Source: Aliivibrio fischeri ES114 | GTDB lineage: Bacteria > Pseudomonadota > Gammaproteobacteria > Enterobacterales > Vibrionaceae | Length of the DNA: 32,000 bases | Reading direction: 5' to 3' (one strand) | NCBI RefSeq assembly: GCF_000011805.1 | Contig: NC_006841.2 | Shown: piece after piece, positions 258 to 16,001 of the stretch | Layout of the letters: every line of letters begins with the position of its first letter | Numbering within the stretch: the first letter of the stretch is position 1 | Program-made: the position numbers and the translations under genes | Notes under the pieces: generated by a model | The model's input: only the letters and a program-made list of their open reading frames with translations | Told to the model about the DNA's origin: nothing | Database searches by the model: none

Positions 258-376
258 TAACGCCTGCATAACACGTTTGCTACCATGCAGATTAAGCTTA
301 AATTTACCACTTAACACGGTAAACTAAAAGAAACCTAGAATGCCGAATGTAGCAAATCGTGTTGATGCATTTGTTA
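258..376 (-). repeat. attC recombination site (VCR-like), subtype A, 119 bp
   Basis: TAACGCCTGCATAACACGTTTGCTAC ... GTAGCAAATCGTGTTGATGCATTTGTTA. The arms pair (ACACGTTTGCTAC with GTAGCAAAtCGTGT), leaving one unpaired T. Confidence 0.9.
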
Positions 377-817
377 TAAGCACATTCTTACACGGTTCAT
401 ATGAACAAATTGAGCATCTTCTGATGTTACTTGGAAACCAAATTTACGATATAAACCGCCTACCCGATTGCCTTGTAAATAACACAATTTCACTGGTTTA
501 TTTTCACTATCAGCAAACTCTAAACATTGGCTCAAAACCTGACTTCCTATTCCTTTTCCGTGAAAGCTTGGTAATAAAAAGAAACGGCAAAAATAAAAAT
601 GCTCACCTTTGTTTTGAAGCAAATAGCTACCTATTGCTTCACCTGACATTTCAATAATGGTTGGTTTTTCTTCATCCCATTCATCTTGATGCATTTCACG
701 TTGGATTTTATCGTCCCAACCAAACACAGCCTTAATTGGCTCAAATTCAGCTGCCTTTTTAAGTTCAAATAAGAACTCAAAATCACTATCTTTCGCTGAA
801 CGCGTAGAAAATTTCAA
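374..817 (-). CDS. GNAT family N-acetyltransferase (147 aa)
   Basis: Acetyl-CoA binding motif A-like HGKGIGSQVL, followed by a C-terminal YRKFGF. The stop codon overlaps the attC end, as is typical for cassettes. Confidence 0.8.
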   Translation of the reverse strand: MKFSTRSAKDSDFEFLFELKKAAEFEPIKAVFGWDDKIQREMHQDEWDEEKPTIIEMSGEAIGSYLLQNKGEHFYFCRFFLLPSFHGKGIGSQVLSQCLEFADSENKPVKLCYLQGNRVGGLYRKFGFQVTSEDAQFVHMNRVRMCL

Positions 818-860
818 ACCTTTACCTCTGGCTCAAATAACCTTAATAAATCGGTGCTTA

Positions 861-961
861 TAACGCCACAATAACACGTGCGAACACCTTACTTTCCAAA
901 CCAATTAAACTTCAAACCACAAACGCCGAGTGTAATTAGCATCGTGTTGATTGCTTTGTTA
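861..961 (-). repeat. attC site, short subtype S, 101 bp
   Basis: TAACGCCACAATAACACGTGCGAAC ... GTAATTAGCATCGTGTTGATTGCTTTGTTA. Confidence 0.88.
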
Positions 962-1417
962 TGCGCGCTTACTTAAGTAAACCCTGACAAACCCAAATTC
1001 TTCGTCCTTTTCTTCCCTATCAATTACCCAAGCATTTTTTAGATAAAACTTAATGGCTTGTTCATTACCTTTGAAAGTTTCAAGGCGATAAGTTTGGTGA
1101 CCTAATAGTGTCATTTTATTTTCAACATGTTTAAGAAGATTAGAACCTAGACCAGAACGCTGAATTTGAGGAGAAACCATTAAGATATGCACGAAGTCAT
1201 TTTCAAATGCACAATAACCTTGAATTTGGTTATTTAATTCAAGTACAACACAGTTTGACAGTTGTTTTTCAATTTCCTTATCTGACTCACCACTGTTAAT
1301 AAACCAATCAACACCCTCATCACCCAAGAAAGAACGATAACAAGTATTAATCGTGTCTCTAGCTAATTCTTGGATCGACGTTAAGTCAGTCCCCTGAGCT
1401 TTTCTAATATTTGCCAT
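959..1417 (-). CDS. GNAT family N-acetyltransferase (152 aa)
   Basis: Motif A-like QRSGLGSNLLKHVE, followed by a C-terminal KFYLKNAW. Single ORF filling the cassette. Confidence 0.8.
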   Translation of the reverse strand: MANIRKAQGTDLTSIQELARDTINTCYRSFLGDEGVDWFINSGESDKEIEKQLSNCVVLELNNQIQGYCAFENDFVHILMVSPQIQRSGLGSNLLKHVENKMTLLGHQTYRLETFKGNEQAIKFYLKNAWVIDREEKDEEFGFVRVYLSKRA

Positions 1418-1440
1418 ATAACCTTTCCTTTTTTAGCACA

Positions 1441-1559
1441 TAACGCCTGCATAACACGTTTACTACTATGCAATTATACTCAATATTGACGCCTTAAAAC
1501 GAGAAACACCCGACAACCTGAGATGCCGAGTGTAGTAAATCGTGTTGATGCATTTGTTA
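1441..1559 (-). repeat. attC site, subtype B, 119 bp
   Basis: TAACGCCTGCATAACACGTTTACTAC ... GTAGTAAATCGTGTTGATGCATTTGTTA. The arm sequences covary relative to subtype A. Confidence 0.9.
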
Positions 1560-1571
1560 ACAAGCAATTAT

Positions 1572-2777
1572 CTACCTAGCTTTATAAGCTATTAAAGCTT
1601 GCTGCAACCAAGAATCTTGTTCCTTGATATTTTTAATCACCCAATTAATGAATTTAGCTGAATACCTGTGAATATCAGTATAATTATGATACTCAGAATT
1701 ATTATTTGCTTTAATTTTATGTTTATAACAGATAGCTTGAAAAGAGTGTTGATTTAATACTACCTTTGATTGCTCTCTATTCATTTGTTCAATAGCAGCC
1801 TTTGTTGTAAAAGGATGCGTTGTATTTAAATCTTTAGCTTGAGTGATAATAACTGCTTGTTGACCATTATCACCAACACTCAGAGTTAAATCGGCCTGAC
1901 TTGGATTTTTTGTTAAAGCTAATTTATAGTCAATTGAGATAGAGTATTTATCTGAGCCAATCTCTTTACTTGTACTTTCAAATTGCTTTAAAAAGTTAGT
2001 AACCTCTACAGCTGTTATATCACCATATGATTCTTTTATGATACCGATTTCAGGATCAGGGCCATCTAACACCAAACTTAACATGCCAACACTCTGGCCA
2101 GCTAAAGGAGAATTCCCCATTTGATTTCGATAACGTTCTTGATAATTTAAAACGTTGGCTTGAAATAATCTTGAAAGTTGAGGCTGTAATTCTGGAATCA
2201 GAAGGTGTGTCGCATGATCTCGTAGCTGTATTAGTGTCTCTATATTTAATTTTACAGGATCATTATTTTGCAACCTCAATGGTAAAGAATCAGATATCGA
2301 AATACTTTTCCCATTTTTATAAAATACTTTCTCCTCACCTAAAGCTTCCAAAATCTCAGCTTTCAAAAATAACTCCCAAGCGTTTACCATCATAATAGTA
2401 AATGCCTAAACCCTATAACATAGACTAGGTCGGTTATACATTTCTAAAGCTAATGTAAATGCATCTAAACTTCTTTTTATCAACTTCTGATACATTTTCT
2501 CATTTGGCGATAATTTACGCGCAGAAGTACTTTGTGACATTAAGCGAATAAATTCATCATTAGAAACTTTAGAAAGTCCTTCTGATACCCATCCTCCATG
2601 TTCAGATTTAAAAATATAGGAACCTTTTAATTTCTCACTTATATATTTCCCAACACTTTTAGGGTTGTAACCTGTTGCTATTGCCGCATCTTGATATGTA
2701 AAGCTTTGCGCTTTATCTTCTTGTTCTCGAAAAAAGTCGAGCAAAAGTATTCTTTTATCTTTTCTAGCCATAATCAA
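1572..2777 (-). pseudogene. DUF3644-like protein gene (about 400 codons) interrupted by one in-frame TAG at 2406-2408
   Basis: ORFs 2406-2777 and 1572-2393 are in the same frame and are separated only by TAG plus 4 sense codons (AFTI). The junction reads ...LEMYNRPSLCYRV*AFTIMMVNAWELFLKAEIL. From memory this matches the conserved N.P..YR.E.F..L..AWE.LLKA core of DUF3644. Confidence 0.6.
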
Positions 2778-2797
2778 TATACCCTACTATTGCTTGT

Positions 2798-2917
2798 TAA
2801 CGCTTGCATAACACGTTTATTACCATGCCAACCAACCTGAATTTTAGCGCCTTAATCACGAAACCCAAGACAAACCCAGAACGCCGAATGTAATAAATCG
2901 TGTTGATGCGATTGTTA
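2798..2917 (-). repeat. attC site, subtype C, 120 bp
   Basis: TAACGCTTGCATAACACGTTTATTAC ... GTAATAAATCGTGTTGATGCGATTGTTA. Confidence 0.9.
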
Positions 2918-2926
2918 AATGAACTC

Positions 2927-3241
2927 TTACTGCAAACCACGGTCATTGAGAACAAATTGGCGTAACTCGCGCTCTTCCCTCATGACATAAAGAATATATA
3001 CAATATCATCGTTGGTTACTTTGTAAAAAATACGGCATGGTGGCAATACAATTTCACGATAATCTAAATGAGGAAGCTCAGGAACACTACGGCCTGATAA
3101 TGGAAAATCCTCTAAACGCTCAACACGATGGAAAACTGATTGAACTAACGCCTTAGCCGCTAAGATATTATTAATAGCGATATATTCTGCAATTTCGTCC
3201 AAATCTAATAATGCTGATTCAGTCCAATTAATTACAGCCAT
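2927..3241 (-). CDS. parE: Type II toxin, ParE/RelE superfamily (104 aa)
   Basis: About 100 aa. N-terminal W..A..DL.EI.EYI, and C-terminal RIFYKV...IVYILYVMREER, typical of ParE (plasmid stabilisation) toxins. Overlaps the upstream antitoxin gene by 10 nt. Confidence 0.8.
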   Translation of the reverse strand: MAVINWTESALLDLDEIAEYIAINNILAAKALVQSVFHRVERLEDFPLSGRSVPELPHLDYREIVLPPCRIFYKVTNDDIVYILYVMREERELRQFVLNDRGLQ

Positions 3242-3486
3242 TTATTCATCTTCTCTTTTGCGGCTTCATGAGAAACTACACGATTATCTGAAATTGCTTT
3301 TTCACCGCGAGCAATACCTTCAAGAATAGCAATTCGTTTTTGCATAAACTCGTAATCATCAACATCTAACAAATAAGCAGACGGTTGACCGTGCTCTGTA
3401 ATTAACACTGGTTCTTTTGAAGCATGAAGCTCAGAAAGAATCTTGGTTGCTTGACGTTTTAATGTAGTGACTAATTCAACTTTCAT
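3232..3486 (-). CDS. Type II antitoxin, Phd/YefM family (84 aa)
   Basis: N-terminus TLKRQATKILSELHASKEPVLITEHGQPSAYLLDVDDYE is the classic Phd/YefM fold signature. Sits upstream of, and overlaps, the toxin gene. Confidence 0.8.
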   Translation of the reverse strand: MKVELVTTLKRQATKILSELHASKEPVLITEHGQPSAYLLDVDDYEFMQKRIAILEGIARGEKAISDNRVVSHEAAKEKMNKWL

Positions 3487-3514
3487 ATTCAGTTTCCATT
3501 ATCGAAAGAACAAA

Positions 3515-3533
3515 GTATCACTATTGTATCACT
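3515..3533 (-). promoter_or_regulatory. Candidate TA promoter/operator: direct repeat GTATCACT (3515-3522 and 3526-3533) overlapping a minus-strand TACAAT -10 box
   Basis: The minus strand reads AGTGATACAATAGTGATAC, about 30 nt upstream of the antitoxin start. Type II TA operons are normally autoregulated at such repeats. Confidence 0.35.
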
Positions 3534-3557
3534 TAATTAGCCATTGAGACAGTTCAT

Positions 3558-3659
3558 TTAACGCTTGCATAACACGTGCTAACGACCAACTTTACCAAAC
3601 CAATTACACTTCAAACCAAAAACGCCGAATGTTATAAGCATCGTGTTGATGCGATTGTT
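3558..3659 (-). repeat. attC site, short subtype S, 102 bp (ends TTGTTG rather than TTGTTA)
   Basis: TAACGCTTGCATAACACGTGCTAAC ... GTTATAAGCATCGTGTTGATGCGATTGTTG. Confidence 0.85.
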
Positions 3660-4118
3660 GTGCGGACTTACTTTCGGCTTAGCTAACTTGGTAAAGAACT
3701 GCTCCACCAAGATTTTCTAAGCCCTGATTTTAATTTAACGATGCCGATTAAGCGAACAAAATGTTCTTAAATTGCGAGATAAAGTAAATGGAAAACAGAT
3801 ACATTTTTTACGCCATTTGAACGACTTGGGTTCAGCTAGTTTGGAACTAAAAAACCAAATATATTAGCCACAACTGGGATTGAAAATATTGCGAGGCAAA
3901 CACTAATGCAGGCTAAAATGAGGCAACACTAAAGAACCATTGAAGCGTAAAATAGCCTCTGAAACGCCTGAATTTAGCCCGACAATGCTTAATTGCCGAA
4001 CCTGATGAAAAGAACACTAAAAGGCAACAAAGAAGAGGATTTGTGATAGCTAAATAGCGTTTAAAAATGTCTCATTTCTATTGAGAAACCGTGCAAAAAT
4101 TTTCGGACTCAGTACGCA
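3660..4118. other. ORF-less integron cassette, paralog family copy 1 of 3 (candidate noncoding RNA or regulatory cassette)
   Basis: No ORF of 60 aa or more in any frame. Alignable by eye to 8962-9422 and 11901-12360. Short ATG frames are not conserved between the copies. Confidence 0.6.
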
Positions 4119-4236
4119 CAACGCCTGCATAACACGTTTGCTACTATGCAGATTAAGCCAAATTTACCACTTAATAAGGTAAACTCAAAGAAACCCAGAA
4201 TGCCGAATGTAGCAAATCGTGTTGATGCATTTGTTA
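4119..4236 (-). repeat. attC site, subtype A, 118 bp (starts CAACGCC)
   Basis: CAACGCCTGCATAACACGTTTGCTAC ... GTAGCAAATCGTGTTGATGCATTTGTTA. Confidence 0.88.
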
Positions 4237-4330
4237 AATGCCACTTACCATTAGATTATTGTTAGCAACCATGGAGCTTTTATTTTACAATGACACTACG
4301 ACTATAGAGTTAACTAAAGGATTGATTATT

Positions 4331-5500
4331 ATGAATTATATAAAAATGAGAGATTTGAGAATTGATGGTGATAATTATTTGATGCAAGTAAAGATTAAGG
4401 ACTATCTAGATATATCTCGCCATATTTTAAAGAAAAATGAGTTTCAAAGACGACGAGTCAGAGCAGCAAAGAGCGTGTACTCTCTACTTAAAGAAGATCT
4501 TATTAAGGGTTGTGTTATCCCGCCAATATCTCTAGCACTAAATAAGACATCGGAAACATTTGAGTCCCAACTTAATGATGGCATATCAGGTGCACTATTA
4601 ACTAATGTGGATAACTTATTAATACTTGATGGATTGCAAAGAACATATTCTTTGATAGACATCGAAAAAGATTTACAAGCAGAGTATGGCTTAGAAAGTT
4701 CTGAGATTGAAAACTTTTACAACCACCAAATTCGATTAGAAATTTATTCCGGGTTAAACAAGATAGGCATTTTATATAGAATGCTAACGCTTAATACGGG
4801 GCAAACACCAATGTCATTAAGACAACAAGTTGAAATGCTATACCTTGATTATGCAGATATTGATATAGATGGTATCGAGATAGTAAAAGAATCGGAAAGT
4901 CGAAGCGCTACACAATACCATCAATATAACTTTAAAGAAATTGTTGAAGGTTTTAATTCTTACATTGAAAGAAACGAATTACCAATTGCTAGACAAGACA
5001 TTTTGGACAACATTAAAGGGCTAGAGAAATTAGCACACGAAAATAGTGGTGAAGATATTTTTAAAGAATACTTGGAATCACTTCACCACTTCATTGATAA
5101 ACTGAACAATTTGACCAATGGTTATGAACTTGATAGTGAATATTACGATATTTCATTCGGTGCCAGTACCACAAAAATATTCAAGAGATCTCAATCATTT
5201 ACTGGTTTTGGTGCTGCAATTGGAAAATTAAAAGACAATGGGAGTGTTTCTGGTCTTTCAGATGTCATACCTTTAATTGATCAGTTAAACTTAAGCGCTG
5301 ATGACTCAGAAGAACTTTTAAGTAAATTGAATGACAATTTTAATTGGATAAAAGATCATTCTAGCAAAATTGGTAACGCGCAAAGAAACTATTTACACTT
5401 TTTCTATAGAGAGTTATTCAATCAAGACAGTGAATCTTACCTAGACCTACTAAAATCAGCGACCACAGCATTTAACCGATATAACAGCCTGTATAACTAG
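4331..5500 (+). CDS. ParB/sulfiredoxin-fold DGQHR-type protein (DUF262/DndB-like), 389 aa; gene A of a two-gene cassette
   Basis: Ordered motifs: EFQRRRV (4442-4450), a hydrophobic IPPISLA segment, LILDGLQRTYS (DGLQR at 4628-4642), then LTLNTGQTPMSLRQQ. The start is moved from the tracked 4238, which abuts the attC, to ATG 4331, which follows AAAGGA. Confidence 0.6.
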   Translation: MNYIKMRDLRIDGDNYLMQVKIKDYLDISRHILKKNEFQRRRVRAAKSVYSLLKEDLIKGCVIPPISLALNKTSETFESQLNDGISGALLTNVDNLLILDGLQRTYSLIDIEKDLQAEYGLESSEIENFYNHQIRLEIYSGLNKIGILYRMLTLNTGQTPMSLRQQVEMLYLDYADIDIDGIEIVKESESRSATQYHQYNFKEIVEGFNSYIERNELPIARQDILDNIKGLEKLAHENSGEDIFKEYLESLHHFIDKLNNLTNGYELDSEYYDISFGASTTKIFKRSQSFTGFGAAIGKLKDNGSVSGLSDVIPLIDQLNLSADDSEELLSKLNDNFNWIKDHSSKIGNAQRNYLHFFYRELFNQDSESYLDLLKSATTAFNRYNSLYN

Positions 5501-5516
5501 TGTAAGGTTTTTATAT

Positions 5517-6542
5517 ATGAATTATGTATCAGGTGAAGGCTATGAAGTTGGAGAGACATTATTTTCAACAGATATAAAGCTTTCCCCTTGCTCTGACTTT
5601 AAAAACTTTACAATATTTAGAGCCTATTGTAGAAAGTTTAATGAAATTGATATAAAGCAAATTAAGATTGATGATGACGATTGTGGTTTTTTGATTCCAT
5701 CATTTAGTTTACTTTCTCAAGATCATGACTACTCTTCTAAAGGAAATTTTCAAGTATTTAGTGATGCTATTATAAAGTGGCACCTTAGCAACTTAGATAC
5801 AGAAAACCTTAAAAGTGAAGTTCCACTAGATAGTTTTTTTAATGAAAACCTCGGTTTTATTGCTATATCCAATCGCAATTATTCCAACTCTAAAGATAAG
5901 GAGCGAAAGATATTCTTTGAGTTGATTAACGCTGGCATTTATGTCGATATTTTACATAAAAGCCCTAGCTTTTATACAGAAAACCCTTTGTTCCCTAATA
6001 AAAATCTACCTAGCACTAAGAGGATTACATTTAAGACGACATCTAATAAGGCGATATTAGATGAGTTTATCTGTGACATTTTCAATTCGATTATTTTTAA
6101 TGAAACTGACCACTTTTTACAATTTTTCTATTTATATCAAGTTGTAGAAACTCTTATTGAATTTGTCATGTCACAGGAATACTCTAAAGTTATGACCAAA
6201 ATTAATGATCTTGGGGGAGGTGTTTCTACTCAACAATTAAAGAAGTTAGTAGAAACATTGAACGAAAGTGTGCAGGAAAGAAAGAGAATTAACAAATTGT
6301 GCAATGAATACACTGACACCTATAATGACAGTTTCAATATTCAACAGAGCCTATTTGATTTCATTAAGCAAAATTTAAACTCTGATTTTGAAGTAAATAA
6401 TGATATCGGATCATGTATTTATGAGATAAGGAACAAGTCTTTTCACGAATTTAGAACGTTACGTAATGCCACAAAATTATCATCAATAACACCGCATGTT
6501 TTCGATTATATTCTGCACTTAATTACTAGCTACAAACATTAA
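5517..6542 (+). CDS. Uncharacterised protein with a C-terminal HEPN-like domain (Rx4H motif), 341 aa; gene B of the two-gene cassette
   Basis: EIRNKSFHE (R305-H310, nt 6429-6446) lies in a predicted all-helical C-terminal third. The first ~190 aa show no motif I recognise. TAAGG SD 9 nt upstream of the start; 16-nt gap after gene A. Confidence 0.5.
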   Translation: MNYVSGEGYEVGETLFSTDIKLSPCSDFKNFTIFRAYCRKFNEIDIKQIKIDDDDCGFLIPSFSLLSQDHDYSSKGNFQVFSDAIIKWHLSNLDTENLKSEVPLDSFFNENLGFIAISNRNYSNSKDKERKIFFELINAGIYVDILHKSPSFYTENPLFPNKNLPSTKRITFKTTSNKAILDEFICDIFNSIIFNETDHFLQFFYLYQVVETLIEFVMSQEYSKVMTKINDLGGGVSTQQLKKLVETLNESVQERKRINKLCNEYTDTYNDSFNIQQSLFDFIKQNLNSDFEVNNDIGSCIYEIRNKSFHEFRTLRNATKLSSITPHVFDYILHLITSYKH

Positions 6543-6547
6543 AAACT

Positions 6548-6579
6548 AAATGCCACATTATCGAAAATATGTGGCATTT
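6548..6579 (+). terminator. Hairpin after gene B (11-bp perfect stem AAATGCCACAT / ATGTGGCATTT, 10-nt loop)
   Basis: Begins 6 nt after the stop codon. The stem ends in TTT but no long T-run follows, because it abuts the attC. Confidence 0.4.
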
Positions 6580-6699
6580 AACGCCTGCATAACACGTTTA
6601 TTACTATGACGACTTAGCAGAATTTTACTGCCTTAAACATCAAACTCAAAGACAAACCTACAATGCCGAATGTAATAAATCGTGTTGATTGCTTTGTTA
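6579..6699 (-). repeat. attC site, subtype C, 121 bp
   Basis: TAACGCCTGCATAACACGTTTATTAC ... GTAATAAATCGTGTTGATTGCTTTGTTA. Confidence 0.9.
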
Positions 6700-6707
6700 A
6701 ATGCGAT

Positions 6708-7160
6708 TTAAAGTAATCTACAAACTAACCGCAACATATCTTTATGCTGAATACCATTTTCATAGATGTCTTCATCATAATTATCGAGAAAGAAATCTTT
6801 TACGATTGAGTCAACTCGAAACCCATGCCGTTGATAAAACGACAATTGATAGCCAAAAGTTCCCGTTCCTAGCTCTACGTTACTGTAGCCATTCAAAGCT
6901 AATTCGTTTAATACAAATTTGAGGAGATTTGAGCCAATACCTTTTTGCTGATATTCCGGAGCTATCGCAATATTGTAGATTTCGGCCACAGAAGAACTAA
7001 GCTGCTTACTAATACAAATACCGACTATTTCATGATTTTTAAAAGCACCGAAACAGTCAGAACCATTCAGATACTTATTAATGCATTCTTGAGATGGATC
7101 TGCTTCAAGTAATAATTTCATTGGGGCTAAATCTGATGATATTTTTTTAAACTCAATCAA
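6708..7160 (-). CDS. GNAT family N-acetyltransferase (150 aa)
   Basis: Motif A-like QQKGIGSNLLKFVL, followed by a C-terminal FYQRHGF. Confidence 0.8.
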   Translation of the reverse strand: MIEFKKISSDLAPMKLLLEADPSQECINKYLNGSDCFGAFKNHEIVGICISKQLSSSVAEIYNIAIAPEYQQKGIGSNLLKFVLNELALNGYSNVELGTGTFGYQLSFYQRHGFRVDSIVKDFFLDNYDEDIYENGIQHKDMLRLVCRLL

Positions 7161-7191
7161 ACCATTTTCCTCTCAAAGTCTTTGAAGCATT

Positions 7192-7312
7192 TAACGCCTG
7201 CATAACACGTTTGCTACTATGCAGACCTAGCTGAATTTTACTGCCTTAATCACTGAAACTAAAGGCAAACCGACAACGCCGAATGTAGCAAATCGTGTTT
7301 ATGCATTTGTTA
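7192..7312 (-). repeat. attC site, subtype A2 (A-type arms, C-like centre), 121 bp
   Basis: TAACGCCTGCATAACACGTTTGCTAC ... GTAGCAAATCGTGTTTATGCATTTGTTA. Confidence 0.9.
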
Positions 7313-7801
7313 TGTGCATTTCTCAAGTGAAGTCAGTTGTAAATAAGAACATTCTAATTTTTCAACAAAGGATTCGCTTATATCAGGAAATCCTTTAGTA
7401 AACTTCTCAACATATGACACTTTAAAAAGATCATATAAAAAGCTACTTTCTATTTTCGCAACATGAATTGGGGAATAAGGTCTAAAAGAAATAATAAAAT
7501 CATCAAGCTCATCGTCATCAATTAAGTTATATTGATCTCCAGTAATATCAATTACCATCCCCTCAATTTCTATCCAATAATGCGTTATAGAACAATTATC
7601 AGGACGAGCTCCTCCGACACCTATAATTTCAATATCAGGATAAAGTTTAAGAAAATGATACACAAGAATCATTGATGTCAATTTGCAGCTCATTACTGGA
7701 AAATCGTCTATTACCAACTCTGTTGCTTCAGGATCACATGATTGAATCAGTTTTCTAAACCTAATAGCTTCATTCAGTATTACATTCCGCTCTATACTCA
7801 C
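7310..7801 (-). CDS. Hypothetical cassette protein (about 163 aa) with a Cys...His...Asp arrangement
   Basis: The tracked ATG at 7819 lies in the attC junction. GTG at 7801 follows a perfect AAAGGAGG. Motifs are FPVMSCKLTS, then SITHYWIEIEGMVIDITGD. Confidence 0.55.
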   Translation of the reverse strand: MSIERNVILNEAIRFRKLIQSCDPEATELVIDDFPVMSCKLTSMILVYHFLKLYPDIEIIGVGGARPDNCSITHYWIEIEGMVIDITGDQYNLIDDDELDDFIISFRPYSPIHVAKIESSFLYDLFKVSYVEKFTKGFPDISESFVEKLECSYLQLTSLEKCT

Positions 7802-7818
7802 ATTGCCTCCTTTGCACA

Positions 7819-7939
7819 TAACGCCTGCATAACACGTTTGCTACGATACAGACTTACCTGAATTTTACTGCCTTAATCACTGAAACTAAAGGCAAACTGA
7901 CAACGCCGAGTGTAGCAAATCGTGTTGATGCATTTGTTA
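7819..7939 (-). repeat. attC site, subtype A2, 121 bp
   Basis: TAACGCCTGCATAACACGTTTGCTAC ... GTAGCAAATCGTGTTGATGCATTTGTTA. Confidence 0.9.
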
Positions 7940-8824
7940 TATTGCTGGTCTATGGTCTTCTTTGTTAGGAGGGATCATTGCTGATGTCCATTTTAATATT
8001 ACTGATAATCCATTCCAATTTCGCAGTCTTTCTTGATAAAGAAGTTCAGTAACATAATTACTTAATTTTTCGTCATCAAGCTCAGGGTTAAGATTATTTT
8101 CTTTAATAACATGAAATAATGCTGTCGCTCTTTTTTTACGAAACTTAACATCAGATTTATGAGAAAAAAGAGAAACCGCAGGCATAATAAACATACCTGT
8201 AACCACAACTACAATAAGAACAAAACTAAGCATAAACAACACTAACCAAGAAGTAGTTTTAATTGAATCTCGACTACTTGAAGGACTATTATCTATGTCA
8301 TATTCTCTAGTATCAATACCAATTGCAGACACTTTTACTTTGGGTTCTTCTGTTCCTTCAAAAAGAAGCCGCAATTGTAATCCCGGTTCAGGTCCATCAA
8401 CTCGATTAATTGCTTGAGCAATAAAATTGAAATAGTATTTGTTACCATCAAATACCATTTTCTTTGTTTGTATAACAGAGTCTGTCGTTTCGTGCTCACC
8501 TACTACCGCATGTGCTAATACCTTAAATTCTTTTACATTTTCTGGCTCTATAATTATAGTCACTGGCAGGTCAAGTAAATCTTTAGTCGAAAAGTTAACC
8601 AACGATACATACATGATGCCAATCTTTTCTTTTTCTGCATTATTAACGATTAGTCTTATTTCATCATCAGGAAACTTAGGCTTTGAGAAATAATTACTTT
8701 CAAATTTCTTATGGATATCTAATTTTGGAACTTTAACTTGCTCCAAATATAGTAAATAACCAATCACCGCAGTAAAAATTGCAGTTAAAGTACAAGAGAA
8801 AACGACTCTCCATATTCCATTCAT
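7937..8824 (-). CDS. Membrane protein, 295 aa: N-terminal TM, ~170-aa middle domain, second long hydrophobic segment, charged C-terminal tail
   Basis: Hydrophobic stretches VVFSCTLTAIFTAVIGYLLYL and WLVLFMLSFVLIVVVVTGMFIMPAVSLF. No family recognised. The stop overlaps the attC end. Confidence 0.6.
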   Translation of the reverse strand: MNGIWRVVFSCTLTAIFTAVIGYLLYLEQVKVPKLDIHKKFESNYFSKPKFPDDEIRLIVNNAEKEKIGIMYVSLVNFSTKDLLDLPVTIIIEPENVKEFKVLAHAVVGEHETTDSVIQTKKMVFDGNKYYFNFIAQAINRVDGPEPGLQLRLLFEGTEEPKVKVSAIGIDTREYDIDNSPSSSRDSIKTTSWLVLFMLSFVLIVVVVTGMFIMPAVSLFSHKSDVKFRKKRATALFHVIKENNLNPELDDEKLSNYVTELLYQERLRNWNGLSVILKWTSAMIPPNKEDHRPAI

Positions 8825-8860
8825 CGATTTTAAACTCCTTCTATAATCTCAAGAGCAATA

Positions 8861-8961
8861 TAACGCCACAATAACACGTGCGAAAGACTGACTTACAAAA
8901 CCAATTATACTCCAAACCGCGAATGCCGAATGTAAATAGCATCGTGTTGATTGCTTTGTTA
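8861..8961 (-). repeat. attC site, short subtype S, 101 bp
   Basis: TAACGCCACAATAACACGTGCGAAAG ... GTAAATAGCATCGTGTTGATTGCTTTGTTA. Confidence 0.88.
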
Positions 8962-9422
8962 TACGAGCCTTGCTTTCGCTCCAATTAACTTGGTAAAGAA
9001 CTGATTTACCAAGATTTGCTGTAAACTGAGTTTAATTAGACTGGCTCAATTAAGCGAGCAAAATATCCAACCAACAACAATAATTGTGAAACGAAACAAT
9101 CCCTTTTTCTTACACTATTTGTACGATTTGGTTTCATCAACTTCTGAGCTAATAAACCAAATATCCTAACCACAATTGGGATTGAAAATGCTGCGAGGAA
9201 AACACTGATGCAGGCTAAAATGAGGCAAAACCATGAACAATTGAAGCGTAAATTAGTTTCTGAAACGCCTGAATTTGGGGCAATAATAGTTCAATGCCGA
9301 ACCTGATGAAACGAACACTAAAAGGCAACAAAGAAAAAGGAAAACCACCTTACTTTCACACCTAAAAAACTAATGGTTCAATCGCTGAACTGAACCAAAA
9401 AACTGCATTCTCAGAGTTCGTA
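8962..9422. other. ORF-less integron cassette, paralog family copy 2 of 3
   Basis: No tracked ORF. Shares a conserved core (about 9170-9340: CCACAATTGGGATTGAAAATGCTGCGAGG...AAAAGGCAACAAAGAA) and a 25-nt hairpin at 8989-9013 with the other two copies. Confidence 0.6.
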
Positions 9423-9541
9423 TAACGCCTGCATAACACGTTTGCTACCGTGCAGATTAAGATCAAATTTACCACTTAAAACAGTAAACTCAAAGAAACC
9501 TAGAATGCCGAGTGTAGCAAATCGTGTTGATGCATTTGTTA
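9423..9541 (-). repeat. attC site, subtype A, 119 bp
   Basis: TAACGCCTGCATAACACGTTTGCTAC ... GTAGCAAATCGTGTTGATGCATTTGTTA. Confidence 0.9.
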
Positions 9542-9550
9542 TGCCTTAAC

Positions 9551-10075
9551 TCAGTAAAGTTTCAATTCTCTTAACAACTTAACTGCTGCATCTTTCGGCT
9601 GTATATCACTCGTATCTACTGACGCATCGTATTTTATGAAATTATGAACCAATGGATACTCCGATTCAGCTAATCCGATTGCACGATCACCACGCGCTAA
9701 TTCTCGTGCAATACAGACATCTAATCTACACATTACCTTGACTCGAACTACGTTAAATCCACTCAAAGACTTTTCTAGTGCATTAATTTCGTCTTCATTT
9801 ATCCAAGCATTATCAATAATAAGTCTACAACCAGCTTCTAATAGTCCTTTAACACAATTATGGTAACCTTCGGTTAATTGCCCATAATCATACCCAGAAC
9901 GACTTATTGGATCCCCTGCTATCATTCTCCTGAGGTCTGTTGGAGGTAAAGCATATAAAACACTATCAATACTAAAATTTAGATATTGTATTGATAATAA
10001 TTCTTGTAACTCTTTAGCTAAGCTAGTTTTTCCAGAACTTCCTGTTCCATTAAGCAAGATTATATCTGGGTACAT
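9551..10075 (-). CDS. Chloramphenicol phosphotransferase-like (CPT family) P-loop kinase, 174 aa
   Basis: IILLNGTGSSGKTSLAKELQ (Walker A), then LNFSIDS, LIIDNAW and ARELARGDRAIGLAE. These align well by eye with the Streptomyces CPT layout (ILNGGSSAGKS / FGVD / IIDDV / ARGDR). Confidence 0.75.
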   Translation of the reverse strand: MYPDIILLNGTGSSGKTSLAKELQELLSIQYLNFSIDSVLYALPPTDLRRMIAGDPISRSGYDYGQLTEGYHNCVKGLLEAGCRLIIDNAWINEDEINALEKSLSGFNVVRVKVMCRLDVCIARELARGDRAIGLAESEYPLVHNFIKYDASVDTSDIQPKDAAVKLLRELKLY

Positions 10076-10102
10076 TGTAAGATTCCTTTCTCAAAAGAGG
10101 CA

Positions 10103-10223
10103 TAACGCCGCAATAACACGTTTATTACTACGACAACTTAGCTAAATTTTACTGCCTTAAACACTGAAACCAAAGAGAAACCTACAACGCCGAATGTAAT
10201 AAATCGTGTTGATTACTTTGTTA
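10103..10223 (-). repeat. attC site, subtype C, 121 bp
   Basis: TAACGCCGCAATAACACGTTTATTAC ... GTAATAAATCGTGTTGATTACTTTGTTA. Confidence 0.9.
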
Positions 10224-10271
10224 TGCGGCACAAATAAAATTAATTGTGTGGAACCAAGATACTACCCGCAG

Positions 10272-10300
10272 TTACATTAACCAAAAACGGTTACGATACT
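10272..10300 (+). promoter_or_regulatory. Candidate sigma70 promoter for the reverse-oriented cassette gene (TTACAT-17-GATACT)
   Basis: Hexamers at 10272-10277 and 10295-10300. Both hexamers and the spacing are conserved in the paralogous cassette (12530-12558). Confidence 0.35.
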
Positions 10301-10329
10301 TAAAATTTGCACAAAACTAAGAGAACAGA

Positions 10330-10632
10330 ATGGATGCTATTGCTCATTTAATTATCATTTTAGGGAATCCATTTGTATATAAAATTGGACATCTAATTAT
10401 TTCAATTTTAAGCATTGGTAAATTGTCCATTCAACCATTACCAACTAAATTTTCCGCTAATTTTGTGCAAGCGTTTGACGAAGATAAAATCGTAGAAAGT
10501 CAAAATAAACAAAACTACTCAATCTCATATGTAATTGCCCTTACCATTGGTTACGCTGTAACTATAGCTATCTTTGGAACCCTATTATTTTATAATATCG
10601 ATAGTTTTATTGAAGCTCAATCATCGAACTAA
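10330..10632 (+). CDS. Small membrane protein, 100 aa (paralog of 12588-12890), oriented against the array
   Basis: Hydrophobic N-terminal (IAHLIIILGNPFVYKIGHLIISILSIG) and C-terminal (VIALTIGYAVTIAIFGTLLF) segments. AAGAGAA SD-like stretch upstream. Confidence 0.65.
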   Translation: MDAIAHLIIILGNPFVYKIGHLIISILSIGKLSIQPLPTKFSANFVQAFDEDKIVESQNKQNYSISYVIALTIGYAVTIAIFGTLLFYNIDSFIEAQSSN

Positions 10633-10641
10633 AAACCCGCA

Positions 10642-10762
10642 TAACGCCGCAATAACACGTTTATTACTACGACGACTTAGCTGAATTTTACCGCCTTAAA
10701 CACCTAAACCAAAGACAAACCTACAACGCCGAATGTAATAAATCGTGTTGATTGCTTTGTTA
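10642..10762 (-). repeat. attC site, subtype C, 121 bp; identical by eye to 12361-12481
   Basis: TAACGCCGCAATAACACGTTTATTACTACGACGACTTAGCTGAATTTTACCGCC ... GTAATAAATCGTGTTGATTGCTTTGTTA. Confidence 0.9.
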
Positions 10763-10823
10763 TATTGCCTATTGATAAACGACATGAAATCGTTCCAATA
10801 CAAGAACCATGTCCTCACTAGGC

Positions 10824-11234
10824 TTAATAATTTAACTCTGAACATTCAGCAGCAAAGAAACGCCAATGAGCTTCACGCCACCATTTTAATGAACAGTCGC
10901 CCTCGCCTTCTACATGAGCAAACTCAGCCGTAACTTCGTTATATTTACACGTTTCAACTGAATCAATTTCAATGATACAAATTGGTTTCCCATTCCAATC
11001 AACGACTACTTGTAAATGACCAACGGTTGGCATTGGTTCTTCACCAGATTCATACCAAACATTTAAGCTACAAGTTGCTGTCTTTTGACCAATTCGGATT
11101 AATTCTGCGCATAAATTGGCATTATGCTCATCAGCACAGAAATAGTCTGAACTGAATGATTGATACTTTTCACGTTTAATTTCAGAAAGTGAGCTTAGAT
11201 ACTGATCCAAGTAGATTTGAGACTGTTCTTCCAT
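10824..11234 (-). CDS. ASCH domain protein (136 aa)
   Basis: Layout typical of ASCH/YqfB-like proteins: FCADEHNANLCAELIRIGQKTATCS, then a beta-rich core, then EFAHVEGEGDCSLKWWREAHWRFF. Confidence 0.7.
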   Translation of the reverse strand: MEEQSQIYLDQYLSSLSEIKREKYQSFSSDYFCADEHNANLCAELIRIGQKTATCSLNVWYESGEEPMPTVGHLQVVVDWNGKPICIIEIDSVETCKYNEVTAEFAHVEGEGDCSLKWWREAHWRFFAAECSELNY

Positions 11235-11261
11235 GAAATCCTCTTAACTATTTTCGCAATA

Positions 11262-11380
11262 TAACACCTGCATAACACGTTTGCTACCATGCAGATTAAG
11301 CTTAAATTTACCACTTAACGCGGCAAACCCAAAGAAATCTAGAATGCCGAATGTAGCAAATCGTGTTGATGCATTTGTTA
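11262..11380 (-). repeat. attC site, subtype A, 119 bp (starts TAACACC)
   Basis: TAACACCTGCATAACACGTTTGCTAC ... GTAGCAAATCGTGTTGATGCATTTGTTA. Confidence 0.88.
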
Positions 11381-11471
11381 TACGTGTCTACTTTAGTTTG
11401 AATAAGCATATATACAAAACTTAATATAAATTACATCTTATCACAGCTAAAACAACACAAGAGATATGAAT

Positions 11472-11503
11472 AAAAAAAGGGCTCGATGACTGGAATCGAA
11501 CCC
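11472..11503 (-). terminator. Rho-independent terminator (minus strand), unit A
   Basis: Minus strand GGGTTCGAT-TCCAGTC-ATCGAGCCC followed by TTTTTTT. 9-bp stem with one G-U pair. Confidence 0.7.
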
Positions 11504-11627
11504 TGAACGTGAAATGCCTGTCTACAGCAGCACAAAAATTATGAGGAGCTCCAGTTTATTACTGGAATCACTCTTAACCAACTGTAAAATAAGACAGGTT
11601 TGTTTTTAACGCTACCCCCCTCGGCAC

Positions 11628-11662
11628 AAAAAAAAGGGACTCATTGGCTAAAATTGAGTCCC
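11628..11662 (-). terminator. Rho-independent terminator (minus strand), unit B
   Basis: Minus strand GGGACTCA-(11-nt loop)-TGAGTCCC followed by TTTTTTTT. Confidence 0.7.
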
Positions 11663-11799
11663 AGACATGAAATGCTTGTCTACAGCAACACATAAGTAAG
11701 GAGTGACTACGATTTTATTACATTGACACTGCCTTACTAACTGTAAAATCAGGTAGGTTACTATTAAATATTTATAATTTGGACGTCATTGATTTCGTA

Positions 11800-11900
11800 T
11801 AACGCCGCAATAACACGTGCGAACGACTTACTTTCCAAACCAATTATACTTCAAACCACAAACGCCGAGTGTAATTAGCATCGTGTTGATTGCTTTGTTA
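11800..11900 (-). repeat. attC site, short subtype S, 101 bp
   Basis: TAACGCCGCAATAACACGTGCGAAC ... GTAATTAGCATCGTGTTGATTGCTTTGTTA. Confidence 0.88.
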
Positions 11901-12360
11901 CACGATCTTTGTCAACGCTTCGCTTTAATTGGTAAAGAACTGATTTACCAATAATATTTAGAAACCAATTCTAAATTACAAAAGCTAATTTAGCGAACAA
12001 AAGAACCGTTCAACTACAAAAACTGCGAAACGAAACAATCCTTTTTCTAGCACCATTTGTACGATTTAGTATCAGCAAGTTTGGAGCTGATAAATCAAAT
12101 ATCTTTGCCACAATTGGGATTGATAATGTTGTGAGGAAAACACTGATGCAGGATAAAATGAGGCATAACCAAAGAACAATTGAAGCGTAAAAATATCTCT
12201 GAAACGCCTGAACTTAGATCGACAATAGTCAATTGCCGAACCAAATGAAATGAAAGCTAAAAGGAAACAAAGAAGAAGGAAAACTACCCTACTTTAACAT
12301 CTAAAAATCGAATGGTTCTATCGCTGAACTGAGCCAAAAAACTGCAATCTTTAGTTCGTG
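11901..12360. other. ORF-less integron cassette, paralog family copy 3 of 3
   Basis: No tracked ORF. Alignable to copies 1 and 2. Hairpin at 11928-11952 carries a compensatory end pair (A...T instead of C...G). Confidence 0.6.
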
Positions 12361-12481
12361 TAACGCCGCAATAACACGTTTATTACTACGACGACTTAGC
12401 TGAATTTTACCGCCTTAAACACCTAAACCAAAGACAAACCTACAACGCCGAATGTAATAAATCGTGTTGATTGCTTTGTTA
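12361..12481 (-). repeat. attC site, subtype C, 121 bp; identical by eye to 10642-10762
   Basis: Same 121-nt string as 10642-10762. Confidence 0.9.
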
Positions 12482-12587
12482 TGCGGCACAAATAAAATTA
12501 ATAGTGTGGAACCAAGGTACTACCCACAGTTACATTAACCAAAAATGGTTACGATACTTAAAACTTGCACAAAACTAAGAGAACAGA

Positions 12588-12890
12588 ATGGATGCTATTG
12601 CTCATTTAATTATCATTTTAGGGAATCCATTTGCATATAAAATTGGACACCTAATTATTTCAATTTTAAGTCTTGGTAAATTGTCCATTCAACCATTACC
12701 AACTAAATTTTCTGCTAATTTCGTGCAAGCCTTTGACGAAGATAAGGTCGTAGAAAACCAAAATAAACAAAACTACTCAATATCATATGGAGTTACCCTT
12801 TCCATTGGTTACGCTGTAACTATAGCTATCCTTGGAACCCTATTATTTTATAATATTGATAGTTTTATTGAAGCTCAAACATCAGAATAA
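12588..12890 (+). CDS. Small membrane protein, 100 aa (paralog of 10330-10632)
   Basis: 89 of 100 residues identical to the other copy (11 substitutions counted by hand). The upstream promoter-like and SD region is conserved. Confidence 0.65.
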   Translation: MDAIAHLIIILGNPFAYKIGHLIISILSLGKLSIQPLPTKFSANFVQAFDEDKVVENQNKQNYSISYGVTLSIGYAVTIAILGTLLFYNIDSFIEAQTSE

Positions 12891-12900
12891 AACACCCGCA

Positions 12901-13019
12901 TAACGCCTGCATAACACGTTTGCTACCATGTAGATTAAGTCCAAATTTACCACTAAACACGGTAAACCCAAAGAAACCTAGAATGCCGAATGTAGCAAAT
13001 CGTGTTGATGCATTTGTTA
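12901..13019 (-). repeat. attC site, subtype A, 119 bp
   Basis: TAACGCCTGCATAACACGTTTGCTAC ... GTAGCAAATCGTGTTGATGCATTTGTTA. Confidence 0.9.
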
Positions 13020-13031
13020 TGTGCGATATTT

Positions 13032-13430
13032 CTACGCATTCCATTCTTTGTTTTGAAGCACAATTCTATAACCATCAATATCTTCAAATGTTTTACCAAC
13101 AATATCCCAATATTTATTATAAGAAGAAACTATTTCAAAACCGGCTATCACCATTCTTTCACAGCATTCCACCCAAATATCATTATCAGAAAAATAGAAT
13201 ACAAGTAGATTATCTTGAGTTGGAGCTTTACCTACCATTTTCCCTTTATGGTGAGTAAACTCTAAGTGATAATTATGCTTTTCATGACCAATTATTGAGC
13301 CATCAAAACCATTGTGATCTTCAAAAGTTCCTAATAACTGAAATCCCAAACCATTCACATACATCTCTGTAATTTTATGAAGATTATCAGTTGGTCGAGC
13401 AACTCTCATTTTTGAAGTTTGAGGTATCAT
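13032..13430 (-). CDS. VOC (glyoxalase / bleomycin-resistance / dioxygenase fold) family protein, about 132 aa
   Basis: RVARPTDNLHKITEMYVNGLGFQLLGTFEDHNGFDG...HLEFTHH...FEDIDGYRIVL resembles small VOC proteins. The start is moved from the attC-junction ATG (13457) to ATG 13430, which follows AAGGAAA. Confidence 0.6.
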   Translation of the reverse strand: MIPQTSKMRVARPTDNLHKITEMYVNGLGFQLLGTFEDHNGFDGSIIGHEKHNYHLEFTHHKGKMVGKAPTQDNLLVFYFSDNDIWVECCERMVIAGFEIVSSYNKYWDIVGKTFEDIDGYRIVLQNKEWNA

Positions 13431-13456
13431 GAAATTTCCTTTTCCTTTTTTGCACA

Positions 13457-13576
13457 TAACGCCTGCATAACACGTTTGCTACTATGCAATTATACTTAAT
13501 ATTGACGCCTTAAAACGAGAAACACCCGGCAAACTGAGATTGCCGAGTGTAGTAAATCGTGTTGATGCATTTGTTA
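13457..13576 (-). repeat. attC site, subtype B, 120 bp
   Basis: TAACGCCTGCATAACACGTTTGCTAC ... GTAGTAAATCGTGTTGATGCATTTGTTA. Confidence 0.88.
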
Positions 13577-13700
13577 TAACGCTGCCAATACTTTTCACCC
13601 ATCCTATTAGGCATTGAGTATAAAGGATAATATCTATCACTATGCGACTTGAATTTTTTAAGGCATTCACACTAAATGATAGCTCAAAACTCTTTACCCT

Positions 13701-14072
13701 TTAGTAAAGTCTTTTTAGCCCTTCATCACAAGCATACATAGATTTTGAGTTGCCTTTATAGCCATAGTTCGTCTTATATTCCCATTTATAACCAACATAT
13801 CCACCATAGCTATTTTTCGCATTGTAACGAATGCAATATCCCTTATTTTCTTCAACTGGTTTCTTCACTGAAGGCTCCCAATATTGAAAGATATCAGCAA
13901 ACTTAGCGCTATCCGGATCTTTTAGTGATGATTTCAAATCATCTAATGCCTTTACAATTTCTATTGGTGGCTTAGACATATCAATCTTTTCATATGTAAG
14001 GTTTTCACTAGAAGTCGACTTACAACCTAAAAGGGATAAAGTGAACATTACAACTAATATTAATTTCTTCAT
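13701..14072 (-). CDS. Lipoprotein, 123 aa
   Basis: Signal peptide with lipobox MKKLILVVMFTLSLLGC. GGAGG SD upstream (+ strand CCTCC at 14079-14083). Confidence 0.7.
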   Translation of the reverse strand: MKKLILVVMFTLSLLGCKSTSSENLTYEKIDMSKPPIEIVKALDDLKSSLKDPDSAKFADIFQYWEPSVKKPVEENKGYCIRYNAKNSYGGYVGYKWEYKTNYGYKGNSKSMYACDEGLKRLY

Positions 14073-14153
14073 TGATTCCTCCGCTTAAAATATAAAGTAT
14101 ATGGTACCATATATTTCACTGAAGTCTATTATGCGCTACGACTACATGCGTTA

Positions 14154-14272
14154 TAACGCCTGCATAACACGTTTACTACCAAGCAATTATACTTAAAATT
14201 GACGCATTAAAACGAGAAACACCCGACAACCTGAGATGCCGAGTGTAGTAAATCGTGTTGATGCAATTGTTA
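14154..14272 (-). repeat. attC site, subtype B, 119 bp
   Basis: TAACGCCTGCATAACACGTTTACTAC ... GTAGTAAATCGTGTTGATGCAATTGTTA. Confidence 0.9.
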
Positions 14273-15017: not shown

Positions 15018-16001
15018 ATGGATATCCCATTAGATCTTAAACCAGATTCACAACGCTTCACCGATCAACTTCGAATTTTCATTCGAACACGTGCGCTAGC
15101 CTATAATACAGAGAAACAATACATATATTGGATAAGTTGCTTTATTCGTCATAACAACTACACATCAAAAGACGAAATTAACGCCTTTGATATACCAGCC
15201 TACCTTGAGCACTTAGTCGTAAAACAGAACGTATCGCCAAATACCCAAAAAACCGCGTTAAACGCACTCATATTTTTATGTCGCGAATACCTACAACAAT
15301 CAGTCGATAACCTTGAATTTAAACGTTCTAAAAAAGCCACTAAATTGCCAACTGTATTTACTCATGGTGAAGCCATCTCCGTTATAAATGAACTTAACCA
15401 CCCCACTAAGCTGATTGCACAACTTATGTATGGGAGCGGTTTACGAATAAACGAAGCATTAAGGCTAAGAGTAGATGACATCGATCTTATCCATAAAACC
15501 ATCACCATAAGAAATGGGAAAGGTAATAAAGACAGGACTACTGTACTACCCGAGAGCATCATTCCAGAGCTTAAAACGCAACTCGAGTTTGTAAAACAAC
15601 AACATAAAATGGATGCAATAAACGGGGATGATGAAGTTTATCTACCTAATGCCATTGCAAAAAAATACCCTCACAGAGCAAAAAGTTATGGTTGGCAATA
15701 TGTGTTTCCTTCAAAACAGATCAGCAAAGATCCACGTTCAGGTCAGCATCGTCGACACCACATGTTAGATAGAAGCGTTCAAAAACAAGTAACCAATGCA
15801 ATAAAAAAACTTGAGATAGATAAGAAAGCCAGCAGCCACACATTTAGGCATAGCTTTGCGACACGAATTTTAGAACGGGGTGGAGATCTAAGGACAATAC
15901 AAGAATTATTGGGTCATTCTGATATCAAAACGACCCAAATTTATACTCACGTAATAGGCTTACACTTCTCAGGAACGAAAAGCCCATTAGACTTTGATTA
16001 A
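15018..16001 (+). CDS. intIA: Integron integrase IntI (tyrosine recombinase), 327 aa, apparently intact
   Basis: IntI-specific insertion ...[41 protein letters not shown]... C-terminal box [41 protein letters not shown]. Divergent from the cassette array. Confidence 0.93.

Follow-up and report, generated by a model that had tools for sequence, protein, structure and literature searches.

A stretch of 32,000 nucleotides from chromosome II of Aliivibrio fischeri ES114 (hereafter the window; its integrase IntIA and the proteins VF_A0651 and VF_A0652 are exact matches to those of the strain) raises the question of what two adjacent genes, carried against the reading direction of a chromosomal integron, do for their host. 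An earlier note on this DNA proposed that they form a candidate anti-phage defence system that could be matched to no named one. The second half of that claim falls because both proteins match the DzbA and DzbB profiles of PADLOC cleanly and over their full length, and on its amino acid sequences the pair belongs to Dazbog, a two-gene anti-phage system already named by Millman et al. (2022). Since the integron setting has also been described in general terms, the claim of novelty fails. By the terms of the earlier note such a match costs it the novelty only; what it observed is confirmed, and its reading of the domains is largely right. This is no new kind of system, and what looks like the main addition of this study is that DzbB has the appearance of a HEPN-type RNase.

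The first gene, dzbA (VF_A0651, 389 amino acids), lies at 4331-5500 on the plus strand and its product matches PADLOC model PDLC03835 with E=2.2e-137 over profile positions 7-391 of 393. The second, dzbB (VF_A0652, 341 amino acids), follows on the same strand at 5517-6542 after a gap of 16 nt, and its product matches model PDLC03836 with E=2.4e-49 over profile positions 21-338 of 341 (PADLOC matches of the window proteins were listed at E<=1). The longest open reading frame for dzbA opens at 4238, and homologues, the PADLOC profile and the NCBI annotation of 389 amino acids all support the ATG at 4331 as the start. Searches of Pfam and NCBIfam returned nothing significant for either window protein, and a literature search for VF_A0651 and VF_A0652 found no mention of them. 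Besides the full-length profile matches, the pair shares with the Dazbog of Millman et al. and of the trigger study by Stokar-Avihail et al. (2022) its gene order, its short gap, its autonomy as two genes, and invariant motifs that are common to Bacillus mycoides GOE10 and at least 70 other genomes. It differs in that the window copy is a reversed integron cassette, known here from sequence, and in that its DzbB falls about 28 amino acids short of the family median (about 370).

The two genes travel as a unit. A word-seeded search found 2420 relatives of DzbA, and an exhaustive profile search found 353 cluster representatives of DzbB. In 78 of 80 genomes with DzbA a relative of DzbB was encoded directly downstream on the same strand, and one of the two exceptions was at the end of a contig. 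The 80 genomes come from Proteobacteria, Bacteroidota, Firmicutes, Actinobacteria, Cyanobacteria and one archaeon, and among them is B. mycoides GOE10, whose sister strain GOE9 is the one tested by experiment. Pairwise identities of DzbA and DzbB are correlated (Pearson 0.85, Mantel p=0.001), with DzbA the more conserved of the two (mean pairwise identity 47% vs 27%), and no conserved third gene was found beside the pair. The synteny and co-variation that the earlier note had asked to see are thus present, and dzbAB is an autonomous two-gene module that is inherited together. A tblastn search with DzbA found only three full-length copies on plasmids and none in phages.

DzbA carries three motifs, Q39-R40, D100-G-L-Q-R104 and N155-T-G-Q158, that are invariant among 50 close-to-medium relatives and 74 genome copies; the DGLQR motif, encoded at 4628-4642, is present in 74 of 74, and a role in nucleotide binding has been described for DGxQR (PMC12065111). 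The Pfam family PF03235 (GmrSD_N, formerly DUF262) was matched by 47 of the 50 relatives at E<=0.01, though with scores that bunch at or just under the gathering threshold; of nine relatives scanned singly, one (P0112, 35.2 bits) tops the cut-off of 33.2 bits. An AlphaFold2 model of DzbA had a mean pLDDT (predicted local distance difference test) of 84.9, and a Foldseek search of BFVD with it retrieved predicted structures of GmrSD_N/DUF262 proteins (best E=2e-6); the model also resembles predicted structures of DndB-like and ParB/Srx proteins. Neither DUF1524 nor any other nuclease domain was found by Pfam in the window protein or the 50 relatives. These data support the view that DzbA is a divergent DUF262/ParB-like module of the NTPase type without a nuclease, which is what the earlier note had read from the motifs, including the lack of DUF1524. 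The helical C-terminal half of DzbA is probably a ParB-associated DNA-binding domain, the counterpart of the one called ParBDB in DndB and NsnA-type proteins. The same DUF262/ParB-like domain with DGxQR is found in GmrSD, BrxU and SspE, where it senses modified DNA and hydrolyses nucleoside triphosphates (NTPs). In those proteins, however, DUF1524 is fused to it, whereas DzbA lacks a nuclease domain, and it is the second protein of the pair, the putative effector, that carries a motif of the RNase type.

That motif, Y302-x2-R305-N306-x3-H310, is located in the helical C-terminal domain of DzbB (the RNKSFH part is encoded at 6429-6446). The active site of HEPN proteins has been described as Rx4-6H with a polar residue after the arginine and an upstream acidic residue, typically in Ex3[KR], in helix 2 (PMC3710099). 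In 118 representatives of DzbB that are about 20% identical to the query, F203, Y207, Q208, E211, Y302, R305 and H310 are invariant. Y302, R305 and H310 are likewise invariant in the 74 genome copies, in which the arginine is followed by asparagine 44 times, by cysteine 28 times and by serine twice. An acidic residue is available at E254 (kept in 73 of 74, with R257 in 64 of 74) within a predicted helix at 238-261, with the spacing E-x2-R as opposed to the typical Ex3[KR]. The Rx4H motif that the earlier note had picked out in this gene is therefore conserved in all the copies compared.

Profile searches with the relatives point in the same direction. All 118 match the PADLOC DzbB model, and 19 of them also match the Csx1/Csm6 CARF+HEPN profile, with a best E of 1.7e-7; fewer match the PADLOC models for Csm6, Cas13a, CARF_HEPN, RTasHEPN and Csx1. 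In Pfam the cross-matches among relatives are to HEPN_Apea, HepT-like, pEK499_p136 and the HEPN domain of Csm6. The cross-matched stretches that were inspected pair the motif-bearing C-terminal domain of DzbB with that part of each profile which represents HEPN. On these alignments, the C-terminal domain is likely to be homologous to HEPN. The N-terminal region of about 190 amino acids (residues 1-195, encoded at 5517-6100) matched no family, but contains E43, G57, P61, S67 and H70, which are near-invariant across about 190 sequences. The papers that could be searched neither include Dazbog among the HEPN-containing systems nor assign DzbB to HEPN. One lead, the UniRef name of VF_A0652, which reads "ApeA N-terminal domain-containing protein", was not reproducible, with no match to an ApeA domain in Pfam even at E<=10.

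Two known systems are worth comparing at this point. PD-T4-2 is listed both as DUF262-containing and as HEPN-containing and thus has a similar pairing logic of DUF262/ParB with HEPN. However, no PD-T4-2 model in PADLOC was matched by the window proteins at E<=1, so this is an analogy of architecture and not a matter of membership. HEPN families in operons with ParB, or fused to ParB/DUF262, were described by Anantharaman et al. (2013, PMC3710099). ApeA, a single-protein HEPN anticodon nuclease activated by deoxydinucleotides, resembles DzbB in having a non-catalytic N-terminal region followed by a diverged HEPN domain, a likely one in the case of DzbB, and HEPN_Apea is weakly matched by 6 of the 118 DzbB relatives. 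On the other hand, neither the N-terminal nor the C-terminal half of the window DzbB matched ApeA_NTD1 or HEPN_Apea in Pfam at E<=10, DzbB is far shorter than Ec2ApeA (in which the HEPN domain alone occupies 335-583), and it has a partner gene.

What Dazbog does when a phage arrives is known from B. mycoides. There, cultures carrying the system stop growing or collapse when infected at high multiplicity; the system becomes toxic when co-expressed with the cytosine methylase of phage SPR, and is escaped by phages that lose CCGG methylation; the same study reported DUF262 in DzbA (bioRxiv 10.1101/2022.08.27.505566). No defence is left once the DUF262 gene has been removed or mutated (PMC10952713), and reviews from 2025-2026 describe the mechanism as unclear. 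The growth arrest, the methylase toxicity and the escape by loss of methylation all come from the literature on the B. mycoides homologue. Since DUF262 senses modified DNA in GmrSD, BrxU and SspE, DzbA is given the role of sensor in the model proposed here. Its nucleotide-dependent DUF262/ParB-like domain, together with a helical C-terminal half that probably binds DNA, would respond to DNA modification of the phage type. DzbA would then relieve or activate DzbB, the HEPN-like C-terminal domain of DzbB (R305, H310) would cleave RNA, and the infected cell would arrest its growth in an abortive infection. We infer from the data above the role of DzbB as RNase effector, a signal that passes directly from DzbA to DzbB, and the sensing of modification by the A. 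fischeri copy. That the ES114 integron holds a complete Dazbog working in this manner, with DzbA sensing modified DNA and DzbB stopping growth as an RNase, appears moderately probable to us. A more elaborate version seems quite doubtful; in it, Dazbog as a whole would pair DUF262, as the sensor of modified DNA, with an RNase of the HEPN type, the N-terminal region of DzbB would be regulatory or ligand-binding in the manner of ApeA or Csm6, DzbA would gate the effector through a nucleotide switch or a small signal derived from DNA instead of mere binding, and the pair would serve the integron as an addiction module.

Several results weigh against the proposed model, and the first group concerns the two proteins of the window themselves. 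DzbA of the window has no PF03235 match in Pfam at E<=1 and does not reach the gathering score, and its structure model found nothing significant in the PDB, with BrxU appearing only at E of about 2; the solved structure of BrxU gave no significant match to DzbA by sequence either. PDB sequence searches with the DzbA and DzbB family profiles and with one relative of DzbB returned only coiled-coil and designed-protein noise and no Dazbog, BrxU or HEPN entry. The assignment of DzbA to DUF262/ParB thus draws on relatives, motifs and predicted structure. For DzbB, the window protein matched no HEPN family in Pfam, NCBIfam or PADLOC, an hhalign comparison of the DzbB family with the DUF3644 HEPN family found in a neighbouring cassette gave a probability of 0.1%, and an AlphaFold2 model built from an alignment of six sequences (pLDDT 42) was too poor to judge a HEPN bundle and gave an empty Foldseek search. 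Because of this poor model the HEPN fold is left unconfirmed, and the HEPN assignment of the window DzbB draws on relatives and motifs. In addition, identity to the pair of B. mycoides GOE10, a relative of the tested strain GOE9, is only 43% for the window DzbA and 21% for the window DzbB.

The results for DzbB could also mean that it is not an RNase at all, in which case R-x4-H would be convergent or would serve to bind a ligand or nucleic acid, and Dazbog would act on DNA like the DUF262 systems that resemble type IV restriction. Such a reading would account for the lack of a significant HEPN match of the window protein itself, for a structure model that brought no confirmation and for the negative hhalign result, and it agrees with the fact that the characterised DUF262 systems GmrSD, BrxU and SspE target DNA. 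However, neither protein of the pair has a recognisable nuclease domain, and the relatives match the HEPN profiles of ten PADLOC models and three Pfam families, with the inspected stretches in the motif-bearing domain. Moreover, the predicted order of helices, which places the E254 helix before an insert, the R305-H310 helix and a last helix, is compatible with the published description of HEPN even though it comes from the low-confidence model. A DzbB that is not an RNase is therefore considered improbable.

The second point against the model comes from genetics. Millman et al. could not transform their dzbB deletion, "possibly due to toxicity", and listed it with deletions of antitoxins. This suggests that DzbA is harmful without DzbB, which fits poorly with DzbB as the sole toxic part, and it leaves room for a relation between DzbA and DzbB like that of toxin and antitoxin. 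The expectation of the earlier note that toxicity resides in gene B alone is called into question by the same observation. It could then be argued that dzbAB is mainly an addiction module that stabilises the array, in which DzbA is harmful (through DNA binding, nicking or NTP consumption), DzbB restrains it, and defence is secondary or absent. The reversed orientation of the cassette would fit, as toxin-antitoxin cassettes of the Vibrio vulnificus array are also reversed and a ParE pair there lies on the same strand as that array's dzbAB. Toxin-antitoxin systems, furthermore, are described as the most frequent kind of "defence" in integron cassettes, and they reportedly lend stability to chromosomal integrons (PMC13108822). 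However, the B. mycoides system protects measurably against phages and has a specific phage trigger, and its protection is lost when the DUF262 gene is deleted or mutated. The invariant arginine and histidine of DzbB point to a catalytic role and away from mere neutralisation. Outside integrons the pair is widespread as well, both in chromosomes and islands and beside SIR2-HerA, and a failed transformation may have trivial causes. An addiction role as the main function is for these reasons rather unlikely, and a defence system with DzbA as sensor and DzbB as effector is still preferred.

The third point concerns expression and depends on the position of the genes in the integron. The integrase gene intIA is located at 15018-16001 on the plus strand (TIGR02249, E=7.9e-113, with 377 bits well over the curated cut-off of 265). 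To its left, a fuzzy search on conserved attC ends found 19 attC-like repeats spanning 259-14272, and most cassette open reading frames between them are on the minus strand. From the position and strand of the integrase and from these mostly minus-strand frames it follows that the array reads leftwards, on the minus strand, and that dzbAB on the plus strand is a reversed cassette. Its own attC, at 4120-4236 on the minus strand, marks the 3' end of the cassette in the sense of the array, with the recombination point G|TT at about 4121/4120. The attC at 6580-6699, also on the minus strand and supported by the repeat search and a hairpin fold, belongs to the cassette that precedes it in the array sense, which holds the GNAT gene 6708-7160. 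The G|TTAAAT core of that site at about 6582/6581 is the start of the Dazbog cassette. Both sites fold into imperfect hairpins (z -2.8 for 4120-4236 and z -3.3 for 6580-6699), and no attC lies between them, which makes the segment a single integron cassette. Measured from attC start to attC start it spans 2460 bp, the maximum of the array; the runner-up has 1357 bp and most have 529-761 bp. The Dazbog pair thus rides backwards in a sedentary chromosomal integron, as the biggest cassette of the array and some 8-10 kb from attI. The description of an exceptionally large, reversed integron cassette given in the earlier note agrees with this, and its coordinates for the motifs, the intergenic gap and the hairpin proved correct on re-check.

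Because it is reversed, the cassette needs expression signals of its own. A scan gave a candidate sigma-70 promoter at 4262-4291 on the plus strand (TTAGCA-18-TACAAT, 9 of 12 matches), the sequence that the earlier note had proposed, and its -10-like element is partly retained in relatives that are 88% identical. The sequence is there, but it has no statistical support, since promoter-like sites are not enriched in this region of 31.5% G+C (10 found vs 14.9 +/- 4.7 in shuffles). At the other end, a hairpin with a 12-bp stem at 6547-6581 lies directly 3' of the dzbB stop and overlaps the core of the neighbouring attC. It has a folding free energy of -15.4 kcal/mol and a z-score of -4.1, and none of 200 shuffles was equally stable, so the terminal hairpin noted earlier is real. 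However, its U-rich tail (UUUAGUUUUUAAUGUUU) is found on the minus strand only, and a scan for promoters and terminators did not call it a canonical terminator on the plus strand. The hairpin resembles an intrinsic terminator of read-through from the side of the cassette promoter (Pc) of the array more than one of dzbAB, and it might protect the reversed genes from antisense transcription.

A promoter no better than chance would be expected if the genes were intact but silent, stockpiled in the wrong orientation at a distance of 8-10 kb from attI, and contributed nothing until the array is rearranged. Most cassettes of large chromosomal integrons have been described as non-expressed, and a neighbouring cassette with an in-frame stop (described below) indicates that decay occurs in this array. 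Both dzbA and dzbB, by contrast, are intact and have all family-invariant residues. Moving a reversed pair beside Pc would give no expression; if its genes are under selection to stay intact, a promoter within the cassette is implied. The layout itself, reversed and with a hairpin at its end, recurs in cassettes of V. vulnificus and Shewanella at 48-88% protein identity. A silent cassette is therefore judged very unlikely, and an expressed Dazbog remains the favoured interpretation.

Copies of the pair in other genomes show how it is carried. The V. vulnificus pair, which is 48-66% identical, has attC sites of the host species' own type on both sides and a hairpin behind it, and it runs counter to most of the cassettes around it. 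In Shewanella colwelliana, where the pair is 77-88% identical, the hairpin stem seen in the window adjoins a different type of attC. In Vibrio alfacsensis the pair lies within an island with integrase and DUF3987 genes, and in a metagenomic locus (L083) an 88% identical pair is next to SIR2 and HerA-like genes with no recognisable attC. Upstream of dzbA in that locus, positions 667-800 can still be aligned with 4200-4330 of the window across the attC core (TTTTTAAAT vs TTTGTTAAAT). This alignment may represent a decayed cassette boundary, and if so it suggests that the copy in the metagenomic locus left an integron.

Integron cassettes have been reported as reservoirs of defence systems, which when integron-borne have two genes at most and are shortened relative to their relatives, and traffic between islands and integrons has been reported as well (10.1101/2024.07.02.601686, 10.1101/2024.07.02.601719). 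The Dazbog cassette agrees with the cassettes of Darracq et al. and the BRiCs of Kieffer et al. in holding a known system of no more than two genes, in shortened form, within one Vibrionaceae cassette, and in having homologues outside integrons too. What sets it apart is its reversed orientation and a size that is unusual within its array. Neither the texts of Darracq et al. and Kieffer et al. nor the searched supplement of the Darracq preprint mention Dazbog.

Other cassettes of the array are notable too. The second largest, at 1572-2777 on the minus strand between attC sites 1442-1559 and 2799-2917, encodes a DUF3644 protein (HEPN of the EC042_2821 type, motif RDHATH) with a restriction endonuclease-like part, and it matches the PADLOC candidate system PDC-S19 with E=4.6e-60. 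Its frame is broken by an in-frame stop at 2406-2408, and an intact homologue of 399 amino acids is 100% identical over the last 272, so it looks like a second cassette of the defence type that was recently inactivated. Other minus-strand cassettes encode a CPT (chloramphenicol phosphotransferase)-like protein at 9551-10075 (E=5e-34), an ASCH-domain protein at 10824-11234 and two GNAT acetyltransferases at 959-1417 and 6708-7160. The cassettes at 10103-10402 and 12361-12660 are duplicates with 95% identity over 300 nt, and in them lie reversed open reading frames of 100 amino acids on the plus strand (10330-10632 and 12588-12890) without a Pfam or PADLOC match. Three paralogous cassettes of about 460 bp, at 3661-4119, 8962-9423 and 11901-12361, have a mean column identity of 85%, no consistent open reading frame of at least 40 amino acids and no Rfam match; an Rfam scan of the window likewise found no family. 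They may be cassettes of the "gene-less" kind that act in regulation or as promoters, and the one at 3661-4119 adjoins the promoter side of dzbA.

The data presented in this study place a compact natural copy of Dazbog in A. fischeri ES114, an organism that is genetically tractable. For the family, the invariant R-x4-H of DzbB provides a concrete and mutable hypothesis for the effector step. The cassettes in V. vulnificus and Shewanella, together with the copies outside integrons, illustrate the traffic between defence islands and integrons, and the ES114 cassette adds a two-gene, reversed and self-contained example to the recent reports of defence systems stored in chromosomal integrons.

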